Numbered from the stretch's first letter, positions 7,780 to 20,519 are shown. The stretch is 64,000 bases of DNA from Syntrophales bacterium (GCA_963668175.1 OY764159.1:192001-256000), one strand, 5' to 3'. Notes: generated by a model not told the origin, from the sequence alone. Translations and numbers: made by a program.

Positions 7780-8433
7780 ATGAAGCTTATTGCCCCCTCG
7801 ATACTGTCGGCTGATTTCAGCCGCCTCGGCGAGGAAATCAAAGCAGTTGAATCAGCAGGTGCAAACTGGATTCATATTGATGTCATGGACGGCCATTTTG
7901 TCCCCAATATAACCATAGGGCCCGCTGTCGTTGCTTCATTGCGCAGGACGACCAAACTTCCTTTCGATGTCCACCTGATGATCAATCATCCGGAGCAATA
8001 TATCGAGGCCTTTGCCTCCGCCGGCAGCGATATCATCACGGTCCACGCGGAAGCGGCCAGCCACCTGCACCGCACCATCGGGGCCATCAAAGAGCGGAAG
8101 ATCAAGGCCGGCGTCTCCATTAATCCGGCAACGCCCCTTGCCTTCATTGAGCCGATCCTGCCGGACGTCGACCTGCTTCTCATTATGACCGTCAATCCCG
8201 GTTTTAGCGGCCAGAAATTCATCGGCAGTTGCCTCGCCAAGATCAAGCAGGCCAGGGAACTTATCGGCCGACTGGCCAATACCGTTACGATCGAAGTGGA
8301 TGGCGGCGTCACGCTGGACAATATAGGATCGATCGTCGATGCCGGCGCCGACGTCTGCGTGGCTGGTTCATCGGTCTTTGGAAGCGCCGATTACGCCAAA
8401 ACGATTGCCGCAATGAGGGCTATCATAAAATAA
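7780..8433 (+). CDS. rpe: Ribulose-phosphate 3-epimerase
   Basis: APSILSADF, HIDVMDGHFVPN, MTVNPGF and EVDGG motifs. Confidence 0.97.
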   Translation: MKLIAPSILSADFSRLGEEIKAVESAGANWIHIDVMDGHFVPNITIGPAVVASLRRTTKLPFDVHLMINHPEQYIEAFASAGSDIITVHAEAASHLHRTIGAIKERKIKAGVSINPATPLAFIEPILPDVDLLLIMTVNPGFSGQKFIGSCLAKIKQARELIGRLANTVTIEVDGGVTLDNIGSIVDAGADVCVAGSSVFGSADYAKTIAAMRAIIK

Positions 8434-8468
8434 ATCCCCCTGAATCGCTTAAGCAATCCAGGGGGATC
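8434..8468. terminator. Hairpin between convergent genes, probable bidirectional terminator
   Basis: ATCCCCCTGAATCGCTT / AAGCAATCCAGGGGGAT imperfect inverted repeat directly after the rpe stop. Confidence 0.55.
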
Positions 8469-8489
8469 AACCATTCTACACGTTGCATC

Positions 8490-9527
8490 CTAAGATATCA
8501 TTTCACCCAGATTTTTCTGGATTTCCCTCGCTTCCGAAACAATACGTTGAAAGAGTTCCGCGACGGTAGGCTCATCGTCGATCAGGCCGGTTACCTGCCC
8601 GACGGGCAGGACACCCTTCACTTCATCGCCCTTCTCGGTGGCCAGGCGGATAGCTTCAAAGGCATTGGCCATGAAGGCCATTTGCCTGGCGTTCTTCCAT
8701 CCGGAAGCCAGAACACCCAGGAACAGCTTGAAATAAGGAAGTTTGATCTGACGAGCGATCTCCCGGGAGGTCAAGAATGCCGCCGGGAGGTCCAACCCGC
8801 GTTCGATGGCCCGCTTCGCCGCGTCCGTTTTCAAAACGCGGCAATAAATGCCGTCGAAGCGTTTCGAGTAAAGGGTATCCGTAACTTCTTTTTCGATGGA
8901 AAGCTTCTTATAATTGTCATGCAAAGGGCTTTCCTTCGTGGTCATCAGGCGGGTGCCCATGGCGATCCCATCGGCGCCCAAAGCGAGGGCCGCTACCAAT
9001 CCCTTGCCGTCGGCCATGCCGCCGGCCGCTATGACGGGAATTTTCAAATGCCTACGAAGGCTGGGAATCAGGATAAACGACGTCAACTCCTCGCCGTGGG
9101 CCGCCGCTTCATTGCCCGTGGCGATGACGGCGTCGCAGCCGTAATCCTGAGCCCGTTTCGCATGCCTAGGATTGACCGTTGTCGCTACGACTTTTCCGCC
9201 GTATTGATGCGCCTTCTCGACCAGCCAATCGCCTTTCCCCAAAGCAAAATTGATGACGGGTACCTGTTCTTCGATGAGGACTTTGGCGTTGTCCTTTGCC
9301 CCCGGAAACATAAGGGAGGCATTGGCACCAAAGGGTTTGTCCGTCAGTTTCCGGATTTCCCTGATCGACGCCCTGGTTTGCTCCACACTCAGCGGACCTG
9401 TTGCCAGAATGCCGAGGCCGCCGGCATTGGAAACGGCGGCCACCATCTTAGGAACACTGATCCAACTCATGCCTGAAAGAACGATGGGATACTCGATACC
9501 GAAAAGCTCTGTTATGCGGGTTTTCAC
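8490..9527 (-). CDS. Nitronate monooxygenase / FabK-like flavin oxidoreductase
   Basis: MKTRITELFGIEYPI, AVSNAGGLG, PVIAAGG and MGTR motifs. Confidence 0.88.
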   Translation of the reverse strand: MKTRITELFGIEYPIVLSGMSWISVPKMVAAVSNAGGLGILATGPLSVEQTRASIREIRKLTDKPFGANASLMFPGAKDNAKVLIEEQVPVINFALGKGDWLVEKAHQYGGKVVATTVNPRHAKRAQDYGCDAVIATGNEAAAHGEELTSFILIPSLRRHLKIPVIAAGGMADGKGLVAALALGADGIAMGTRLMTTKESPLHDNYKKLSIEKEVTDTLYSKRFDGIYCRVLKTDAAKRAIERGLDLPAAFLTSREIARQIKLPYFKLFLGVLASGWKNARQMAFMANAFEAIRLATEKGDEVKGVLPVGQVTGLIDDEPTVAELFQRIVSEAREIQKNLGEMIS

Positions 9528-12459: not shown

Positions 12460-12832
12460 AGAACGTCCTCCTTGATATGATGGTTAGAGAATCTTGACCT
12501 TGTTCTATATTCTTTTCAGACACCTCCACCCCTGTCGTCTCCGCCATATCGCCACACTCTGCGCCTTCCAAAGAAGACCCCGGAGCTGAATTTACCGTGA
12601 AGCGACCGATACACCCCACCATGTCGGAATTCTCAAATAAAACATGATACTGCCGTCATATCCTGCCGAAAAGATAAAATCCTGCTCATCCCGGCCGCAA
12701 GCGACAATCCGAAGATTGTCTCTCCGGGTTACATGCAAGGTTGATGTTGAAAAAGGATGCTTCCTGCCGGGCGGGCCCGGCCGGATCAGATCGATGACGG
12801 CTTATGACCGAAAAAACGCAAATCGTCTCCCG

Positions 12833-14539
12833 TCAGGGAGAAACGCCGGCAAGGCTTATCGGCGTAATCGTTGTCCTGACAACACTGGCGGGTTCACTTG
12901 TAAAGACGATCATAAAAGCTACTTGGTTTTGGGGAAGAACTTTGCTGTTGGAAAGATCGCTGCCCTGGGGAATGGACAACGCGGAACCGATTTCCGCCTC
13001 ACCCAGAGTCGAAAGCTTATCATCGGAAAGAATATTTCCGCAGTAAGTCACTTTTGATGCCAGGACAGAACCTTGAGAATCGTAAAGCTCGCCCAGAATC
13101 TTGATGGCGGACACAGGAAAGGCCGCTTGGTTGACGGCGTTCCCCTCAACAATCCTGATATTTCTCCCGAGCGGATTGTTATAGATGAACCGCTGCTTGA
13201 CATCGGTGAATTTGATCTGCTGATAGACAGTCATCTCCTGTTTCCGATCCACTTCCACCAAACGATCAAAATACGGGATGTTGGACGCCATCCAACGGAT
13301 AGTTTGCTGTCCGGCATCGGGATACAACCCGAAATAACCCGCAGACATCGCAGCAAAGATCGCAAAAAGAACGCCTGCGCGCACCCAAGAACGCGTCGGC
13401 GGTTTCTGCGGCTTCGCCTTAAATGCTTTTCCGAAAACCTCTTCTTCTCTGCTTATCATCTTGTCATCGGTAATTTCCGGCACTCCCGTCGGTTCTTCGG
13501 TCGAGGGGACCGATTTCTGCAAATCAAGGGTCTTGTCAAGATCCACCGGGGTGCGACGATTTTCCGTCAGAGCCTCTTTTCTGATAATAAATGCTGGCAA
13601 AGCCTTCTCCGGCGGTTCATCTTTCGCATTTTCTTTCCCGTCCGCCGGCAGCTCATCATCTTCCCGGCGAATGGCCTCCGGCGTCGATTCAGATGCCGAT
13701 TCCTTATTTTCCAATGTCAGGGACGTACCATGTTCGGGCAACCGCTCGGATGTCGAAATCTGCTGCGGCTCTTCCTCCGATACCGCCGGAATTTCTTCCT
13801 TTCGCGGCTCCGGCGCCGGTTCCTCATCCGCCCGCTGCAGATCGACCGTCGGCCTGTCCCGCTCTTCGAGGACCAGCGGTACAGGTTCCGGTGCCTCAGA
13901 AGTCGTTGCAGCTGCCGGATGCCGCTCCTCTTCTGCATGAGTTTCCGTCGATACCGAATCTCGCCCTTCCATGACCAGGACCGGCATATCCAGGGGCGAT
14001 GGGCCGGAAATGGAAGCCTCCGGTTGTTGTTCCTGCTCCCGGGAAATATCCGCAGGCAAAGACTCTTCGGCCACGGTTGCAACGGCAGGTAAGGCGGCCG
14101 CATCGTCGCCGGTCGGAGCTTCTCCTATTCCGGCCGACATCTTATCTTCAACGGCGGTCAACCTTTCTTCCTGCGGATAGACGGCTTCTTCGCGATCACA
14201 GGACGCGAACGCAGGTTCCATTATGATCGACGCGACCGGCGTTTCCGCAGATACCTGAGGTGCGGCGTCTATGGAAAGCTCCGGCAACGCCCCTTTTTCC
14301 AAAGTCAGTTCCTGTTCGGGAACCGCTACCTCCCGATTTTCTGTAACAACCTCCGGCGGTGCAGCGTCCGCGGAAAGGACCGACGTCGGATCGCTTCCCA
14401 CGAAGGTCGCCAGGAAGTTATCCAGATCCTGCCTCTCCCGAATCAGATCGGACGCTTTTTCGTTCATGATTCCCGATAAAAAGGCATCCAGTTCTTTTTT
14501 TTCTCGAATTAGATCCAACGCATTTGTGCGAGTGCTCAT
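12833..14539 (-). CDS. Membrane-anchored protein: long acidic E/P-rich linker, one TM helix, DUF3426-like C-terminal domain
   Basis: Low-complexity N-terminal part, hydrophobic GVLFAIFAAMSAGYFGLY segment, then 'IVEGNAVN...YCGNILS...FMIVF'. Confidence 0.65.
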   Translation of the reverse strand: MSTRTNALDLIREKKELDAFLSGIMNEKASDLIRERQDLDNFLATFVGSDPTSVLSADAAPPEVVTENREVAVPEQELTLEKGALPELSIDAAPQVSAETPVASIIMEPAFASCDREEAVYPQEERLTAVEDKMSAGIGEAPTGDDAAALPAVATVAEESLPADISREQEQQPEASISGPSPLDMPVLVMEGRDSVSTETHAEEERHPAAATTSEAPEPVPLVLEERDRPTVDLQRADEEPAPEPRKEEIPAVSEEEPQQISTSERLPEHGTSLTLENKESASESTPEAIRREDDELPADGKENAKDEPPEKALPAFIIRKEALTENRRTPVDLDKTLDLQKSVPSTEEPTGVPEITDDKMISREEEVFGKAFKAKPQKPPTRSWVRAGVLFAIFAAMSAGYFGLYPDAGQQTIRWMASNIPYFDRLVEVDRKQEMTVYQQIKFTDVKQRFIYNNPLGRNIRIVEGNAVNQAAFPVSAIKILGELYDSQGSVLASKVTYCGNILSDDKLSTLGEAEIGSALSIPQGSDLSNSKVLPQNQVAFMIVFTSEPASVVRTTITPISLAGVSP

Positions 14540-14825
14540 TCTATAATGACCTCAAGGATTTAACCTGGCCGCGATACATCTCATTCCGCATTTTCCTTCG
14601 CTTCGTTTGCCTTGTTTTCGGTCAATTCCGGAATAGTGACTTCAATGATGTCCTTACAGACCCGGCAGGGGAACGTTATCACGGAATCCGTGATGTCTTC
14701 GCGTTCTATCACATATCTCTCTCCGCACTCTTCGCAAAAGATAATCATGTACGGCTTCTCGTTCTTTCCATGATGTATTTTGCAGGATGAATCCCTTTAA
14801 AATACCCGTCTCGGCCATTTCAATT

Positions 14826-15935
14826 CTACTTGAGCTTCAGATCCGCTCTCAACGACCTGATCTCGTCTGCAATCGTCTTTTTAACTTCATCGAGTACATA
14901 AGCAACGATCTCGTGCGGCGCCAGATCCTTGATTTTGCTCGGTGTATCAGAATCACCTGGGTATGGCTGAGATGTCGTACCTGTAAGAGCGGATACCTCC
15001 TGCCCGGTAAGTGACCCGTTGATCGCCGATTCCGGTCTTTTCCCGATCTTTTCGCTCTCACCGCCTGCGTGTGAGGCGAGATCAGCTGTTGCCACCCAGG
15101 ATCTGTATTTCTTAATGTCCTCCGCCAGCATGGCATGCTTTGCTTCCGCCGTTAATGTATTGGACAGAACCACGCTTTCAAGGTCATCGTATATGAACAG
15201 GAGCAGCTTGATAGAAACGGCGTCGGCATCCGCTTCCTTGGCCCGGATGAACCTGCCCAAGAATCGAAGGATGCGCAGGAATCCGAGGACAGTGCGATCT
15301 TCGGAATAGAGTTCATCCAAGTGACTGATCTCCTGATCGAATTTTTCAAGAATCGCATCATTGATTTCCCACTCGATGGAAAGGACAATACCCTTGAGTT
15401 CTTTCAGGGGTGAATACATGATGGATGACGTCTCATCCAACTTGCCGTACATGGCGTCAAAACGCTCTTCTCTAGGCTTATCTTCGCTTTGCACATCGGA
15501 TGACGGAACGATATTTTGAAGATCCGCATGGGTCGGCGTAGCAACTTCAGTCTGTCCAACCTTATCTTCCTTTAAAAAGATGGTATTTAAGCGGTCTTCT
15601 ATTTCCCGGATAAAATCCGAGCCCTTTACTTTTTCAGGCCCGGAGTCATCAACTGTGTCCTTTTTGTCGCCAAAAAGGTCCGGTTCGCTGGGCGGTTCGA
15701 TAGTCACGTCTTTGAGGCTCTCGTGAATATACAATGGTTCAGAACCTGAATCGATATGTTCAGATTTATTCCCATCCGCGTGAGGAGGTTCGAGAGCCAC
15801 TTCGTCAAGACGGTCATGCCCGCTCTTGGATTCGGCGTCTTTCTTGGCATCCCGTTTGTCGAAATCTTCGCCAAAAAGGACATTGAGGCGGCTTTCGATT
15901 TCCTGAACAAATGACGATTCCTTATTCGTCTCCAT
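14826..15935 (-). CDS. Hypothetical acidic protein, candidate MglA-associated scaffold
   Basis: 369 aa ORF directly downstream of mglA; repeated EIE(S/D)RLNxxF helix; helical core. Confidence 0.75.
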   Translation of the reverse strand: METNKESSFVQEIESRLNVLFGEDFDKRDAKKDAESKSGHDRLDEVALEPPHADGNKSEHIDSGSEPLYIHESLKDVTIEPPSEPDLFGDKKDTVDDSGPEKVKGSDFIREIEDRLNTIFLKEDKVGQTEVATPTHADLQNIVPSSDVQSEDKPREERFDAMYGKLDETSSIMYSPLKELKGIVLSIEWEINDAILEKFDQEISHLDELYSEDRTVLGFLRILRFLGRFIRAKEADADAVSIKLLLFIYDDLESVVLSNTLTAEAKHAMLAEDIKKYRSWVATADLASHAGGESEKIGKRPESAINGSLTGQEVSALTGTTSQPYPGDSDTPSKIKDLAPHEIVAYVLDEVKKTIADEIRSLRADLKLK

Positions 15936-15946
15936 TTTTCATGCTC

Positions 15947-16552
15947 CTATTGAAGTTCCTTCTCGAGAGAAGCCATCGTAGCGGATATGATCTTCTTCAA
16001 GGTCGACACAACATTAAGCCCGGACAGCGCGCTGGCTTCAAATACAGGCACTTTTAATTCAGTATTCAGGTCCGCTTCCATGGTTGCAAAATCAAGGATC
16101 TCGATACCCTGCTCGGCAATATCCCGTTTATTGTACTGCATAACCAGAGGGATATCAAAGATGTTTTTGTTGTAAAGCGCGAGGTTTTCCTCCAGGTTTT
16201 TCAGGGACATAATATTCTTTTCTCTCCTGGTCACCGCAGAATCGGCGACAAATACGACGCCGTCAACGCCTTTCAAAACCAACCGTCTTGTCGAGTTATA
16301 CTTGACTTGGCCGGGAACCGTGTACAATTGAATTTTGACGTCGTAGCCGTTGATCTTTCCCATGTCGAAAGGAAAAAAGTCAAAGAAAAGTGTCCGGTCA
16401 CCCTGGGTCTTGACCGTCACCATCTCCGAATTGATCTGAGGGCGGCATATATTGTAGATAAACTCCAGGTTGGTCGTTTTGCCGCCCCGTCCCGGCCCGT
16501 AATAGACGATCTTGGCCTGGATGACCTTGTCCTTTAAGTTAATGAATGCCAA
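15947..16552 (-). CDS. mglA: MglA-family small Ras-like GTPase
   Basis: KIVYYGPGRGGKTTNL, DRTLFFD, LYTVPGQ, VFVADS and NKRD motifs; probable TTG start at 16552. Confidence 0.95.
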   Translation of the reverse strand: MAFINLKDKVIQAKIVYYGPGRGGKTTNLEFIYNICRPQINSEMVTVKTQGDRTLFFDFFPFDMGKINGYDVKIQLYTVPGQVKYNSTRRLVLKGVDGVVFVADSAVTRREKNIMSLKNLEENLALYNKNIFDIPLVMQYNKRDIAEQGIEILDFATMEADLNTELKVPVFEASALSGLNVVSTLKKIISATMASLEKELQ

Positions 16553-16619
16553 CGCTTTTTCCTCCTCACCAGGAAGGCGCACCATCCTTTAAGGTGTAAA
16601 AATAACCGCTGCCGGAATA

Positions 16620-17015
16620 CTATGACGGAGCCAAAACTCTTAGCAATTCCTCTATAACACCGGCCACCTTCAGCCTGAGGAAGCCTAACGACACCTGGTT
16701 ATTGAAAATATTGACCAAGAGATAATCCTCGCTGACCTTGCTGAAGTAGATATTCTCTTTCTGGCCCTTGTGAAAAAGGAGCGAAAATTCGTCTTCACCG
16801 ATAATTTGCGCCATGCTGCTCATGGCACCAAAGTTGGCGGCCGCAAGGGCCGCCAGCGAATAAATATCATGAATATCGTTTCCGTTGTTCACCGAGGCAA
16901 TGATGTTACCGGCCGTATCGATCAGTATCGCACACTGCACATCAATGGTGAGAAGGTTATTCGATAAGATGTCGTGAATTTTATTGAGCTGTTCTTGACC
17001 TAATATCAAGTTCAT
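16620..17015 (-). CDS. mglB: Roadblock/LC7 protein, MglB-like GAP
   Basis: LIDTAGNII, SLAALAAANFGA, EFSLLFHKG and SLGFLRL; directly upstream of mglA. Confidence 0.88.
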   Translation of the reverse strand: MNLILGQEQLNKIHDILSNNLLTIDVQCAILIDTAGNIIASVNNGNDIHDIYSLAALAAANFGAMSSMAQIIGEDEFSLLFHKGQKENIYFSKVSEDYLLVNIFNNQVSLGFLRLKVAGVIEELLRVLAPS

Positions 17016-17160
17016 AATATCCCCGCCTGCGAGTCACGCTCCTTACGTTAGTGGTCTTCTGTCTGCCAGATCATGCAACAGCCTTCGGCATCATGCCTGA
17101 TTCCGGCATATTCATTGATGTACCGGATGTCCGGTCTCGGCGGTCCTGAAGCTGTTCCGT

Positions 17161-17343
17161 TCAGATACTCTTGTCCAGAATTTCACTTGCCGCCGCCTTA
17201 AGCTTATTGATCAGCTCTTCCGTATCTTTCATTTCCGAAGCCTGGTTCAAGGATATCCCCGTCTTGCTCGCAAGGGTCAGCCTTCCTTTGAAACCAGCTT
17301 GCTCCGTAACAATCTCGAAAATTCGAACCAGTTTCTCTCCCAT
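17161..17343 (-). CDS. Small helical hypothetical protein, copy 2
   Basis: 60 aa, GGAGG RBS, paralog of 18813..19010. Confidence 0.75.
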   Translation of the reverse strand: MGEKLVRIFEIVTEQAGFKGRLTLASKTGISLNQASEMKDTEELINKLKAAASEILDKSI

Positions 17344-17362
17344 CGCACCCTCCCTTTATCCT

Positions 17363-17740
17363 TTAAGATGTGACCGCTTCTTCAAATGCGTTGACGATGT
17401 TGGGTAATATCACGTTCAGCAGCAGGCCCAGTTTCGCTTTCTTCGTGTCGATGGCTATCCCCCATTGATAGTCGCCGAACGGAATAAAGAAGAGACCTTT
17501 GTTCCCGAGACAGTCCAGATAGTAATAACGCCCCAGTTGAGGGTAATCCTTCCCCTGGGCAAGGGACTTCTGAATATAGCTCGTCACTTCATTAAACAGG
17601 GCCGCCGTACTGGAACTCGATTTTTCCGTAGCCACCAACGTCTGGCCGTCGGCCGTCGTAACGATGCTCGACGCAATGAGACCGTCCCCCAAATCCCGCT
17701 TGATAATCTCCATACACTCGTTCAGTTTTTGAATGTTCAT
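17363..17740 (-). CDS. Atypical roadblock-like protein, copy 2
   Basis: 125 aa; roadblock-like pattern (..DGQTL.., C-terminal LGLLL); AGGAGG RBS. Confidence 0.75.
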   Translation of the reverse strand: MNIQKLNECMEIIKRDLGDGLIASSIVTTADGQTLVATEKSSSSTAALFNEVTSYIQKSLAQGKDYPQLGRYYYLDCLGNKGLFFIPFGDYQWGIAIDTKKAKLGLLLNVILPNIVNAFEEAVTS

Positions 17741-17918
17741 CGCCCCTCCTTCTCATAACAGATTTTCGATCTGCGCCTGACCCGCTGTAGAACGTGCTCG
17801 CATTTCCGAAGCCGGCCGCGCCCTCTAAAACCGATCCAGCATTATGTACACCCCGATCGGCTCTATCACCACATGTTCCACCCCTGACTGCCAGAAGGTT
17901 GGGGAACACATAAACCCC

Positions 17919-18794
17919 CTATTCCTTACCTCCCGTTTCCACTGCTGCTGCAAAGGACTGCATGAGTCGAGGCATGAGGACATTCAGGAAAAGTCCCAGT
18001 GCATGCATGTCGTTATTAAATACGATACCCCAGATATATTCATCAAACAGCAGAACGAAAAGCGTCTGATCGTCCGCAAGATCCAAATAGTAATAAGCTC
18101 CCAATTCATGTTCCGACGCATCATGAGAGAAAACACGGCCGATGAGATCGGTCAATGTTTTGAAGAAGTGGATTGCTGTGGGCGTGGATTCGTAGCCCAA
18201 CAATGTTCCGCCGTCTTTCCTGCTCAAAACGGCCGTACGTATCAGGGCATCCCCCATATTTTTACGCAAGGAGTCCAGCACCTTTTCCAATTCCGTCCTC
18301 AGTTTGGGGGAAACACCATCCTTTAAGTCACGGTCCTCATCGATTGCCTCCTCCGCCGCATCTTCCGCTGCGTGCTGCACTGCTTCATCCTGACGGCGCG
18401 AACTTTCCATCAAGAGAGCCATGAGTCCTTTATCGACGGTACGTACGATATTCGTCGTATCGATGATGTGTTTGATATTCAGCCTGACATTCTGCCATGA
18501 CATGATCTCCATGGCAGCGTCCTCTCCCCCCAGGTCGCCGCATACGGCATCATAGAGAGAACCTTGAATAAAACAGAAATGCCCATGTTTGTCGCGTCCT
18601 CGATAAACCTCCAGAATACACGTCTGTTGATCCATGGCCACGACTTGGATAAAACTGCCTATCGATAATCCGACAAGGGGCCACCCCGGTAACGTTTCGG
18701 TCGATTCTCCCTTGCCCATTTTTGCATCCGACTGCTTTTCGCGACTCGTCTTATCCTCAATCGGTTTCTTTTCCATCATTCCGGCACCTGCCAT
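17919..18794 (-). CDS. DUF4388 (PATAN-like) domain fused to a roadblock-like domain
   Basis: 'GLSIGSFIQVVAMDQQTC...G.LYDA...GEDAAMEIMSW...LMALLMESSRRQDE' fits DUF4388; the C-terminal ~125 aa align with the 125 aa paralogs. Confidence 0.8.
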   Translation of the reverse strand: MAGAGMMEKKPIEDKTSREKQSDAKMGKGESTETLPGWPLVGLSIGSFIQVVAMDQQTCILEVYRGRDKHGHFCFIQGSLYDAVCGDLGGEDAAMEIMSWQNVRLNIKHIIDTTNIVRTVDKGLMALLMESSRRQDEAVQHAAEDAAEEAIDEDRDLKDGVSPKLRTELEKVLDSLRKNMGDALIRTAVLSRKDGGTLLGYESTPTAIHFFKTLTDLIGRVFSHDASEHELGAYYYLDLADDQTLFVLLFDEYIWGIVFNNDMHALGLFLNVLMPRLMQSFAAAVETGGKE

Positions 18795-18812
18795 GCCACT
18801 TCACCCAGATCA

Positions 18813-19010
18813 TCAACTGCGTGTCATTTTCTGATGCTCTTCATAGACGTCGTTTGCAGCGTACTTGAATTTATTCACAAGCTCTTCCGTATCTTCCATT
18901 TCCGCGGCCTGGGTCATGGACACCCCTGTTTTCGCTGCCAACGCCAAGCGTCCTTTAAGACCGATCTTCTCGGTCACTATTTCATAAATACGCACCAATT
19001 TCTCTCCCAT
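18813..19010 (-). CDS. Small helical hypothetical protein, copy 1
   Basis: MGEKLVRIYEIVTE start; paralog of 17161..17343. Confidence 0.75.
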   Translation of the reverse strand: MGEKLVRIYEIVTEKIGLKGRLALAAKTGVSMTQAAEMEDTEELVNKFKYAANDVYEEHQKMTRS

Positions 19011-19029
19011 CGCACGCTCCATGAATCCT

Positions 19030-19407
19030 TTAAGATGTGACCGCTTCTTCAAATGCGTTGACGATGTTGGGTAATATCACGTTCAACAGCAGGCCCAGTT
19101 TCGCTTTCTTCGTGTCGATGGCTATCCCCCATTGATAATCACCGAACGGAATAAAAAAGAGCCCCTTATTCCCTATGCAATCCAGATAGTAATAACGCCC
19201 CAGTTGAGGGTAATCCTTCCCTTGGGAAAGAGACTTCTGAATATAGTTCGTCACTTCATTAAACAGGGCCGCTGTACTGGAACTGGATTTTTCCGTAGCC
19301 ACCAGGGTCTGGCCGTCCGCCGTCGTAACGATGCTCGATGCAATAAGACCATCCCCCAAATCCCGCTTGATAATTTCCATACACTCGTTCAGTTTTTGAA
19401 TGTTCAT
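19030..19407 (-). CDS. Atypical roadblock-like protein, copy 1
   Basis: 125 aa; differs from 17363..17740 at 3 residues. Confidence 0.75.
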   Translation of the reverse strand: MNIQKLNECMEIIKRDLGDGLIASSIVTTADGQTLVATEKSSSSTAALFNEVTNYIQKSLSQGKDYPQLGRYYYLDCIGNKGLFFIPFGDYQWGIAIDTKKAKLGLLLNVILPNIVNAFEEAVTS

Positions 19408-19814
19408 TGTCCCTCCTTCAAATTAATCCCAGTAAATTAGTCCTGCCTAGGGAGTCCAATTCTCCGCCAAGTCATGCTTTCGGGATACAATGATAAACGA
19501 TTCGCCAGCTCCCGAACGCATTCCGTATCATTCATCCTGCATACGGCCGGCCAATTTTTGCATAGGAAGATCATGCCAACACCGGCTTATGTCATATCAT
19601 GTATTACAGCAGTTGGCGAATCCTTTTTTATCGTCCGGACTCTTCGAGTGTAAAATAATAATTCAGTAAGGAAATATAGAGGATAGGCGTCTCTATGTCA
19701 ATATAAAAACTTGAAAATGCCTACTTTCCCGATCTTCATCTCCAAAAGTGTTTTCAAGAATGGCAAACGTGGGGGAACAGGCGTTCAAAGGAATTAAATC
19801 GACAAGACGAACAT

Positions 19815-20519
19815 CTAGGGTTTCCCTCGGGCGAAGGCCTCCATCTCTCCCCAATTGCCGCGTACCGACGGCAGATGAGCCTTTGCGGCTAATAAATCCA
19901 GATATTCCTTTCTCGGAATCATCCTCGCACCAAGGCTCAGGAGATGGTCCGTGTAGACCTGACAATCGATGACGGAAAAACCGAGGTCCCGGATGACCGA
20001 CACCAGGGTTATCAAGGCGGCCTTGGAGGCGTTACTCATCCTGGTAAACATCGACTCCCCGAAGAAGCAAGACCCGAGAGATACACCATAGAGTCCTCCG
20101 GCCAGAACATCCCCCGCCCAGGCTTCGACGGAGTGGGCAAGCCCAAGTTCATGAAGCCGGCAGTATGCTTCCAGCATCTCGTCGGTTATCCAGGAGCCGC
20201 TCTTGTCTTTCCGGGACTGACGGCAGTTTTCAACGACCTCCCTGAAGCTCCGATCATAGGTGATCGTGAAAGTGCCCTTCCTGAAGACCTGACGCATGCT
20301 TCTCGACACGTAAAGTTCCCCGGGAAAGAGCACAAAGCGGGGATCGGGCGACCACCAGATAATCGGTTCACCTTCCGAGTACCACGGGAATATGCCTTCT
20401 TGATAAGCCAGAATCAGGCGCTCCGGCGATAAATCGCCCCCGACGGCAAGAATACCGCTGGGAGAAGCCAGCTCCGCCGGAGGAAACAACAAGTCTGCCG
20501 CCAATCTAAAAATGGGCAT
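19815..20519 (-). CDS. aat: Leucyl/phenylalanyl-tRNA--protein transferase
   Basis: GGDLSPERL, AYQEGIFPW, WWSPDPR, AHSVEAW and FFGESMF motifs. Confidence 0.97.
   Translation of the reverse strand: MPIFRLAADLLFPPAELASPSGILAVGGDLSPERLILAYQEGIFPWYSEGEPIIWWSPDPRFVLFPGELYVSRSMRQVFRKGTFTITYDRSFREVVENCRQSRKDKSGSWITDEMLEAYCRLHELGLAHSVEAWAGDVLAGGLYGVSLGSCFFGESMFTRMSNASKAALITLVSVIRDLGFSVIDCQVYTDHLLSLGARMIPRKEYLDLLAAKAHLPSVRGNWGEMEAFARGKP

Follow-up and report, generated by a model that had tools for sequence, protein, structure and literature searches.

In a 64,000-nucleotide (nt) stretch of DNA from a Syntrophales bacterium (GCA_963668175.1 OY764159.1:192001-256000; hereafter the window), we analyzed a cluster of ten co-oriented minus-strand genes that spans positions 12833–19407 and reads, in transcription order, A, B, C, D, E, mglB, mglA, H, I, and J. 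On balance, we think it probable that this operon encodes an MglA/MglB GTPase switch which steers where and when type IV pili are extended. The connection to pili was suggested by the original prediction, made from the sequence alone, and appears likely: an extra PilB-like ATPase is encoded at 16 of the 18 other Syntrophales-type loci in our comparison set, and the genome itself carries pilus machinery genes, i.e., pilM, a secretin gene, pilC, two genes for PilT-like and two for PilB-like proteins, and three pilin-like matches. In the set of 18, repeated contigs were counted once; the genomes compared are kin, and the locus counts do not represent independent events. Nine of the ten genes had been recognized in the original prediction with correct positions and sizes, but the tenth, encoding the 55-amino acid (aa) zinc ribbon I, was overlooked.

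The MglA protein (212 aa when read from ATG, 15947..16585) matches the Thermus and Myxococcus MglA proteins with an E-value of 3e-52, and the G motifs and family signatures attributed to it earlier (GPGRGGKT, DRTLFFD, YTVPGQ, and YNKRD) were confirmed. Its start is likely a TTG codon at 16552, located downstream of a GAGGAGG motif, which would yield a protein of 201 aa. Group 1 MglA proteins are defined, in the accessible part of PMC4316618, by a P-loop, an arginine by the G2 threonine, TVPGQ, NKxD, a size of 150–240 aa, and an mglB gene within four genes. We found the P-loop, the arginine beside the G2 threonine, TVPGQ as G3, and NKxD as G4 in a protein of 201–212 aa, and mglA directly adjoins mglB. 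These motifs place MglA, as an intact GTPase, in Group 1. Its partner MglB (131 aa, 16620..17015) retains the Pfam Robl_LC7 domain (E 1.4e-9) and aligns over residues 5–129 with M. xanthus MglB (6h5b_B, E 2e-19), while its score against NCBIfam NF052242 (55.7 bits) lies under the 200-bit equivalog cut-off. The MglB sequence runs out near residue 130 of the M. xanthus protein, and the Myxococcus C-terminal helix is not present; at all 17 Syntrophales-type loci checked, MglB is just as short, with a tail that extends 63–70 aa past the helix-2 motif. In Myxococcus, this helix promotes nucleotide exchange and binds the GltJ zinc ribbon, according to the accessible part of PMC11135422.

The accessory genes were expected to be linked to mglAB in relatives, and this proved to be the case: the order C-(D)-E-mglB-mglA-H-I-J is retained in 17 of the 18 loci, the contig of the 18th ending after mglB, and C, E, and mglB are adjacent in all 18. 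An MglA match is present in 10 of the 61 genomes of the order (this one counted) and in seven of the eight of the family, and MglA homologs were detected in 229 of 401 sampled genomes of the phylum. The ATPase genes that accompany the operon encode proteins of the GAF-MshEN-T2SSE type and lie downstream and co-oriented, downstream and inverted, or upstream. They are extra paralogs, 37–47% identical at the N-terminus to a common GAF-MshEN-PilB copy, for which an N-terminal query from this genome matches 58 of the 61 genomes of the order, mostly at 56–87% identity. In our tree, most operon-linked ATPases form one clade, while those of family f14 cluster with the common copies of that family. A single clade of all of them, and with it one origin, was rejected by the approximately unbiased (AU) test (p 0.009), which was run on 19 of 29 rows with an LG+G4 quick tree, leaving out the long branches L049, L065, and L066 and seven near-redundant operon rows, and in which the copy of genome G060 joined the tested group after the first tree was seen. 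Since the operon-linked copies are not one clade, the link between ATPase and operon was formed or renewed more than once. The GAF-PilB gene at G000:C1:272919 (G000 being the genome of the window) was considered as the relocated ATPase of the operon and rejected, as it is the common copy.

The gene that follows mglA encodes the acidic protein H (369 aa, 14826..15935). It is composed of an N-terminal helix, conserved in the alignment of homologs, that occurs twice here (8–20 and 106–121), a bundle (178–283), and a C-terminal helix (340–365), which are joined by disordered acidic linkers; its end helices may resemble those of RomR- or PopZ-like scaffolds. In the structural model, overall confidence is low (predicted local distance difference test, pLDDT, 59), yet the five-helix bundle is predicted confidently. 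The best natural matches of the bundle are CheA P1 domains (Z 12.2, 11.8, and 11.0), with 1i5n at the top (root-mean-square deviation, rmsd, 3.4 over 117 aligned residues). We only tentatively assign it a predicted CheA-P1 or histidine phosphotransfer (HPt)-like fold, because a designed helical bundle scores Z 12.4, any helical bundle may reach values up to about 13, and the best Foldseek E-value is 0.2. No conserved phospho-accepting histidine was found on helix B, where at most three of 60 domains carry one in any column (helix correspondence by eye). Nine of the 60 have a histidine just past helix B, and the only common one (42/60) lies in a loop and is not present in this H. The lack of a conserved histidine in these 60 domains led us to reject H as a working phosphotransfer protein.

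Homologs of H are encoded in 52 of the 401 phylum genomes, and in 45 of these the gene sits no more than 1 kb from an mglA. As for the other seven, two have MglA elsewhere, the position of one is not listed, and four carry no MglA match (G060:C91 (L120), G325:C64, G285:C38, and G145:C1). G060 also keeps, on another contig, an ATPase of the operon-linked clade; the persistence of this gene and of H without an MglA match suggests a decayed operon. Among 20 mglA-H loci picked for diversity across the phylum, a DUF4388 gene is nearby in 13, a zinc-ribbon gene in nine, and a PilB-like, pilC, or pilMN gene in four, whereas the free roadblock family described below and the small protein went undetected at all 20. 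From this survey it follows that mglB-mglA-H forms a phylum-wide core, and genes A to E a Syntrophales-type front end. Several H variants were also seen: one carries a CheW fusion (L117:6143-7441), and tandem bundles occur in proteins of 787–1229 aa encoded right after mglA (L107, L108, and L110).

The front end contains two copies of a divergent free roadblock protein of 125 aa, A (19030..19407) and D (17363..17740). Neither matches any Pfam family (PF03259 included) or NCBIfam, and their placement among roadblock proteins rests on the predicted fold. The AlphaFold2 model of D, built from 72 sequences, has a pLDDT of 92 and displays the roadblock succession of a helix, two strands, a helix, three strands, and a helix; in Foldseek its best match reaches an E-value of 4.5e-6 with a template modeling (TM) score of 0.75, and 98 matches lie at E ≤ 0.001. 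By VIA, it scores Z 15.9 against an Asgard roadblock protein (rmsd 1.9, 116 aligned) 14.3 against MglB, and 10.1 against MglC (7cy1). Sequence comparison of D and its alignment with PDB entries matched no roadblock protein. The roadblock fold foreseen for the 125-aa proteins is therefore borne out by prediction (pLDDT 92, structural matches at Z 14–16), the fold of A being taken from the D model.

Between A and D, identity amounts to 97.6% at the protein level and 94% at the DNA level; their genes differ in 20 synonymous and three non-synonymous codons, which suggests that both copies are maintained. The small helical proteins that follow them, B (65 aa, 18813..19010) and E (60 aa, 17161..17343), are 65% identical, and A-B and D-E constitute, as read from their sequences, a tandem duplication. 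Given the near identity of A and D, the operon encodes roadblock domains of three kinds, namely that of MglB, that of the free 125-aa protein, which is present in two copies, and that of its relative fused into C. The earlier count of four roadblock-type domains was an overstatement in this respect, as two free copies are found at only two of the 18 relatives' loci, in one of which a copy is truncated (two small proteins are encoded at 10 of 18). Four distinct roadblock partners were rejected on the same identity and on the tree, in which the copies cluster by genome. In genome G002, the duplicated roadblock copies are 86% identical in DNA (L011:6744-7124 and 8360-8740), as compared to 71–74% between genomes. 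The small proteins, in turn, keep positional orthology (80% identity between genomes, 65% within). This grouping of roadblock genes by genome, while the small genes remain orthologous by position, suggests that the roadblock copies of an older duplication were probably homogenized by gene conversion limited to the roadblock gene. A third, orphan member of this roadblock family (hereafter family A), 53% identical, is encoded at G000:C1:3702167-3702535 (L020:8162-8536), 3′ of a co-oriented PAS-HD_5 (HD-GYP-like) gene.

Protein C (291 aa, 17919..18794) combines a DUF4388 (PATAN) domain at residues 40–137 (E 2.7e-8; 34.3 bits against a cut-off of 25) with a roadblock-like domain at residues 168–287, which is 32% identical to A/D and belongs to the same family. 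In the Pfam scan, no receiver (REC) domain was present on the chain or elsewhere in the operon. Family A comprises 433 clusters at E ≤ 0.001. Among 52 longer members picked from the 150 matches listed, 30 contain REC plus DUF4388, 13 DUF4388 alone, two REC alone, one a chemoreceptor fusion, and six no match. As these distant relatives are mostly of the REC-DUF4388-roadblock type, C seems to be a response regulator that lost its receiver, and a receiver is kept as a separate gene just upstream of C in four loci (L027 by Pfam; L026, L028, and L030 by close homologs). PATAN, which is DUF4388, binds the N-terminal domain of PilB1 as well as PilC in Synechocystis, according to the accessible part of bioRxiv 10.1101/2021.06.11.447907. 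We also observed a different array at L044:2819-8421, with the order REC-DUF4388-roadblock, DUF4388-roadblock (MglB-like), a divergent MglA, DUF4388-family-A roadblock, a small protein, and REC-DUF4388. At six mglA-H loci (L104, L105, L107, L112, L113, and L115), REC-DUF4388 genes are followed by genes for proteins of 110–126 aa, which are roadblock-like by eye only, as those scanned have no Pfam match and none matches family A.

The composition of the front end raises an alternative, which we regard as unlikely: that two modules merely abut here, one being the phylum-wide mglB-mglA-H(-zinc ribbon) core and the other a cassette of roadblock, small-protein, and PATAN genes. As the output end of a two-component system, this cassette would act on PilB without MglA. 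The front half would then be partly redundant in this genome, with A/D duplicated, no receiver, and no dedicated ATPase. The predominance of REC plus DUF4388 fusions among the longer family A members and the failure to detect family A or the small protein at the 20 mglA-H loci are consistent with such an arrangement, as are family A roadblock genes found next to genes for a kinase, a response regulator, or a REC-DUF4388-roadblock protein at L069, L070, and L071, where the fetched flank contains no mglA. The intergenic gaps (19, 18, 178, 19, 145, 34, 11, 77, and 41 nt from A to J) point the same way, in that those of 178 and 145 nt divide the cluster. Yet, C, E, and mglB are never separated at the 18 loci, DUF4388 genes recur near mglA-H in 13 of the 20 phylum loci, the DUF4388-roadblock and small genes of G330 come directly after a different mglA, and the codon differences between A and D speak for maintenance of both copies rather than redundancy.

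The B/E family pools at least 529 unnamed proteins, with no Pfam match among the 120 members listed, and falls here into a subtype that precedes the PATAN gene (B) and one that precedes mglB (E). The Atlas model of E is similar in shape to the helical N-terminal portion of H-NOX domains, with TM scores of 0.69–0.74 that lie below the threshold at which the Atlas names a family; its alignment matched no PDB sequence. In six other genomes from the phylum search, the small protein gene follows a roadblock-type domain near mglA in three and lies beside chemoreceptor genes in the remaining three, where no roadblock or mglA match was found nearby. Distant homologs with chemoreceptor genes and genes for proteins of 175–200 aa were observed at L045:8315-10809, L046:7320-9872, and L047:253-4881. 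One of these 175–200-aa neighbors is XylR_N-V4R by Pfam and four have no Pfam match; there are hints, from modeled shape, of a split H-NOX/V4R sensor at these three loci.

The last two genes encode a stand-alone zinc ribbon, I (55 aa, 14581..14748), and a membrane protein, J (568 aa, 12833..14539). The former matches Zn_ribbon_4 with an E-value of 2.7e-6 (27.6 bits, under the cut-off of 30.3), and its cysteines (C5xxC8-x19-C28xxC31) are spaced as in Caulobacter ZitP and Myxococcus GltJ (AgmX). J contains a conserved N-terminal helix, a long acidic proline-rich linker, one predicted, moderately hydrophobic membrane helix (about 388–406; hydropathy 1.63), and a C-terminal DUF3426 domain (E 2.9e-9). 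ZitP unites a zinc ribbon, one membrane helix, and DUF3426, the last being needed for pilus assembly (PMC5182063, accessible part), and the GltJ zinc ribbon binds MglB and raises its GTPase-activating protein (GAP) activity (PMC11135422, accessible part). In contrast to ZitP, the ribbon and the DUF3426 protein are products of separate genes in every complete locus (17 of the 18 relatives), and I and J represent, at the level of primary structure, a ZitP architecture split over two genes. A fused ZitP-like gene (Zn_ribbon_4, membrane helix, and weak DUF3426) was also noticed at G000:C1:4096565-4097500 (L021:6563-7501), beside a phosphoribosyltransferase gene.

From the observed genes, motifs, gene order, and phylogeny, together with the predicted folds, we infer the binding steps and the pilus output of the proposed GTPase switch as follows. 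MglA would cycle between its GTP- and GDP-bound forms with the MglB dimer as GAP, as homology and the preserved motifs suggest. For H, we predict the role of an MglA-linked scaffold, whose histidine-less HPt-like bundle would serve as a binding surface and not as a phosphate carrier, with the disordered linkers and end helices tethering partners. J may hold the assembly at the inner membrane, its DUF3426 domain lying outside. The split ZitP/GltJ-like unit would be completed by the free zinc ribbon I, which would bind MglB or a scaffold helix. A/D might pair with the roadblock half of C, aided by B/E, and so position its PATAN domain, which, by analogy with cyanobacterial PATAN, would contact a PilB-type ATPase at its N-terminus. 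The dedicated GAF-MshEN-PilB protein encoded beside the operon would be this target in most relatives, and one of the two other PilB-type ATPases would take its place here. In favor of the proposed output, a family A roadblock gene of G393 lies directly 5′ of a GAF-PilB gene, with no mglA match in that genome.

Several observations weigh against this steering of pili. PilM is encoded in 58 of the 61 genomes of the order against 10 with MglA, showing that pili occur without the module; with PilM that widespread, the operon would be an accessory to nearly universal pili. This genome lacks an operon-linked ATPase copy, no pilus gene flanks its operon, and 16 of the 20 phylum mglA-H loci show no pilus gene among the genes identified. 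The common GAF-MshEN-PilB-like gene (G000:C1:272919-280000; L048:6893-13994) is followed by CHASE2-Ser/Thr kinase, PP2C, FHA, and OmpA genes; as these are not pilus genes, its role as a pilus motor is assumed. The genes before it we take to be glycyl-tRNA-synthetase-like. Finally, the GltJ ribbon acts via the MglB C-terminal helix (PMC11135422, accessible part), which these MglB proteins do not possess, and ZitP serves a different type of pilus (Cpa).

It is also conceivable, but to our mind quite improbable, that the switch has as its target not pili but chemosensory arrays or another polar structure, which it would position or modulate. H would then mimic CheA-P1 and thereby bind receivers of the CheY type, while the small protein would provide a link to chemoreceptors. 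The CheA P1 domains that head the natural matches of H, the CheW fusion of its homolog at L117, the three distant small-protein homologs beside chemoreceptor genes (one next to the XylR_N-V4R gene), a family A roadblock fused to a chemoreceptor (P0265), and the large chemotaxis repertoire of the genome, i.e., 30 MCP (chemoreceptor-domain) and 12 CheW matches along with two weak Flagellin_N matches, are in line with this explanation. Against these stand the equally high score of a designed bundle in a range of Z that can be generic, the lack of a conserved histidine on helix B of H, and the gene neighborhoods, since no che gene is found among the annotated neighbors (not all of them scanned) of the 18 loci, as opposed to PilB-like genes in 16. 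That the module instead gates pili or a secretion ATPase for syntrophic attachment (aggregation, conductive pili), as a stable polar anchor and not an oscillating switch, seems very unlikely: an MglB without the helix that promotes nucleotide exchange in Myxococcus, an operon without a receiver-domain protein, and relatives named Syntrophales, Syntrophaceae, and Smithella agree with it, but an MglA match in only 10 of 61 Syntrophales genomes means that the module is not general to the order, and nothing in the analysis bears on partner contact.

The steering switch that we favor has several relatives among known systems. The operon would work like the Myxococcus polarity module (MglA, MglB, MglC, RomR/RomX, and RomY) and possesses a true Group 1 MglA and MglB, yet it is not that module. 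Both share a Group 1 MglA with an intrinsic arginine finger and TVPGQ, an adjacent MglB, extra roadblock proteins, and a link to type IV pili, which is a likely one here. They differ in that MglB here has no C-terminal helix, the extra roadblocks form a separate family that in structure resembles MglC (Z 10.1) no more than MglB (14.3), and the accessory genes, including those for H, the 60-aa protein, PATAN, and the split zinc-ribbon/DUF3426 pair, are united in one operon; moreover, no receiver domain is encoded in it, while RomR, RomX, and RomY were not searched for genome-wide. The cyanobacterial PatA-type regulators (PixE, PixG, and LsiR) have the PATAN/DUF4388 output domain in common with C, which carries a roadblock in place of a receiver and whose presumed input is a GTPase module rather than a photosensor or chemosensory kinase. 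In the actinobacterial conservon (CvnABCD), a single operon likewise encodes a small GTPase, a roadblock, and an unnamed small protein, but there the GTPase is of Group 2 with GTPGQ and accompanied by a histidine kinase, in contrast to TVPGQ and no kinase in the operon here.

The original prediction regarded the module as uncharacterized, which holds in part. PATAN genes near Group 1 mglA and a few systems with two MglB proteins were noted in the accessible part of PMC4316618 (Wuichet and Sogaard-Andersen), and its supplement file 3 already tabulates PATAN>MglB>MglA in Syntrophobacter fumaroxidans and PATAN beside mglA in Desulfatibacillum and Desulfococcus. In contrast, H, the divergent roadblocks, the small protein, the zinc ribbon/DUF3426 pair, and the dedicated ATPase are not named in that part. 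Our literature search, in which few subscription journals were covered, retrieved no paper on the operon, H, the small-protein family, or the dedicated ATPase, and the operon is not described in the accessible parts of PMC11580455, PMC9481161, and PMC10933270. What is new are three unnamed partner families and a dedicated ATPase; the parts are familiar and the combination is new. A bolder interpretation, which we find possible but doubtful, is that of an undescribed Desulfobacterota branch of MglA polarity systems, in which RomR/RomX and the MglB tail would be replaced by H, a pseudo-HPt scaffold, as the dedicated partner of MglA. The GTPase would then, in Syntrophales, be linked directly to its motor through a PATAN-roadblock protein without a receiver, a free roadblock, and a 60-aa adaptor similar to an H-NOX fragment. 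This motor would be a dedicated GAF-bearing PilB protein that was recruited on more than one occasion, and the zinc ribbon would act in trans on a membrane anchor with DUF3426.

The surroundings of the operon are unrelated to it, with clpS-clpA-aat upstream and an acyl-CoA ligase gene downstream. On the same strand, a candidate σ70-like promoter (TTGACA-17-TATATT, 19673..19701, 11/12 consensus matches) precedes A, and a terminator-like hairpin, also a consensus match only, lies at the end of J (12824..12845). Both are no more than suggestive, since promoter-like sites in the scan are about as numerous as expected by chance (nine versus 7.8). Contigs of run X2, which may derive from the source sample of the window, show no differing letters over seven pieces, which cover most of both the A and D copies and span the I/J (zinc-ribbon/DUF3426) boundary; an assembly artifact as the cause of the A/D duplication or of the I/J split is unsupported, as these contigs agree and the relatives are organized likewise. 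The GC content at 14000–20000 of the window is 47–51% as compared to 55.8% genome-wide, a modest and unexplained difference.

What is known of MglA partners comes mainly from Myxococcus, Bdellovibrio, and Thermus, and this operon offers concrete candidates, namely H, whose gene comes after mglA in many families, the roadblock family, the 60-aa family, and the dedicated ATPase. It also makes testable whether PATAN near mglAB ties the GTPase to the pilus motor, a question posed in the accessible part of bioRxiv 10.1101/2021.06.11.447907. If the proposed steering of pili is true, the operon would reveal the means by which anaerobic syntrophs direct their pili, a matter of relevance to aggregation and to contact with partners.

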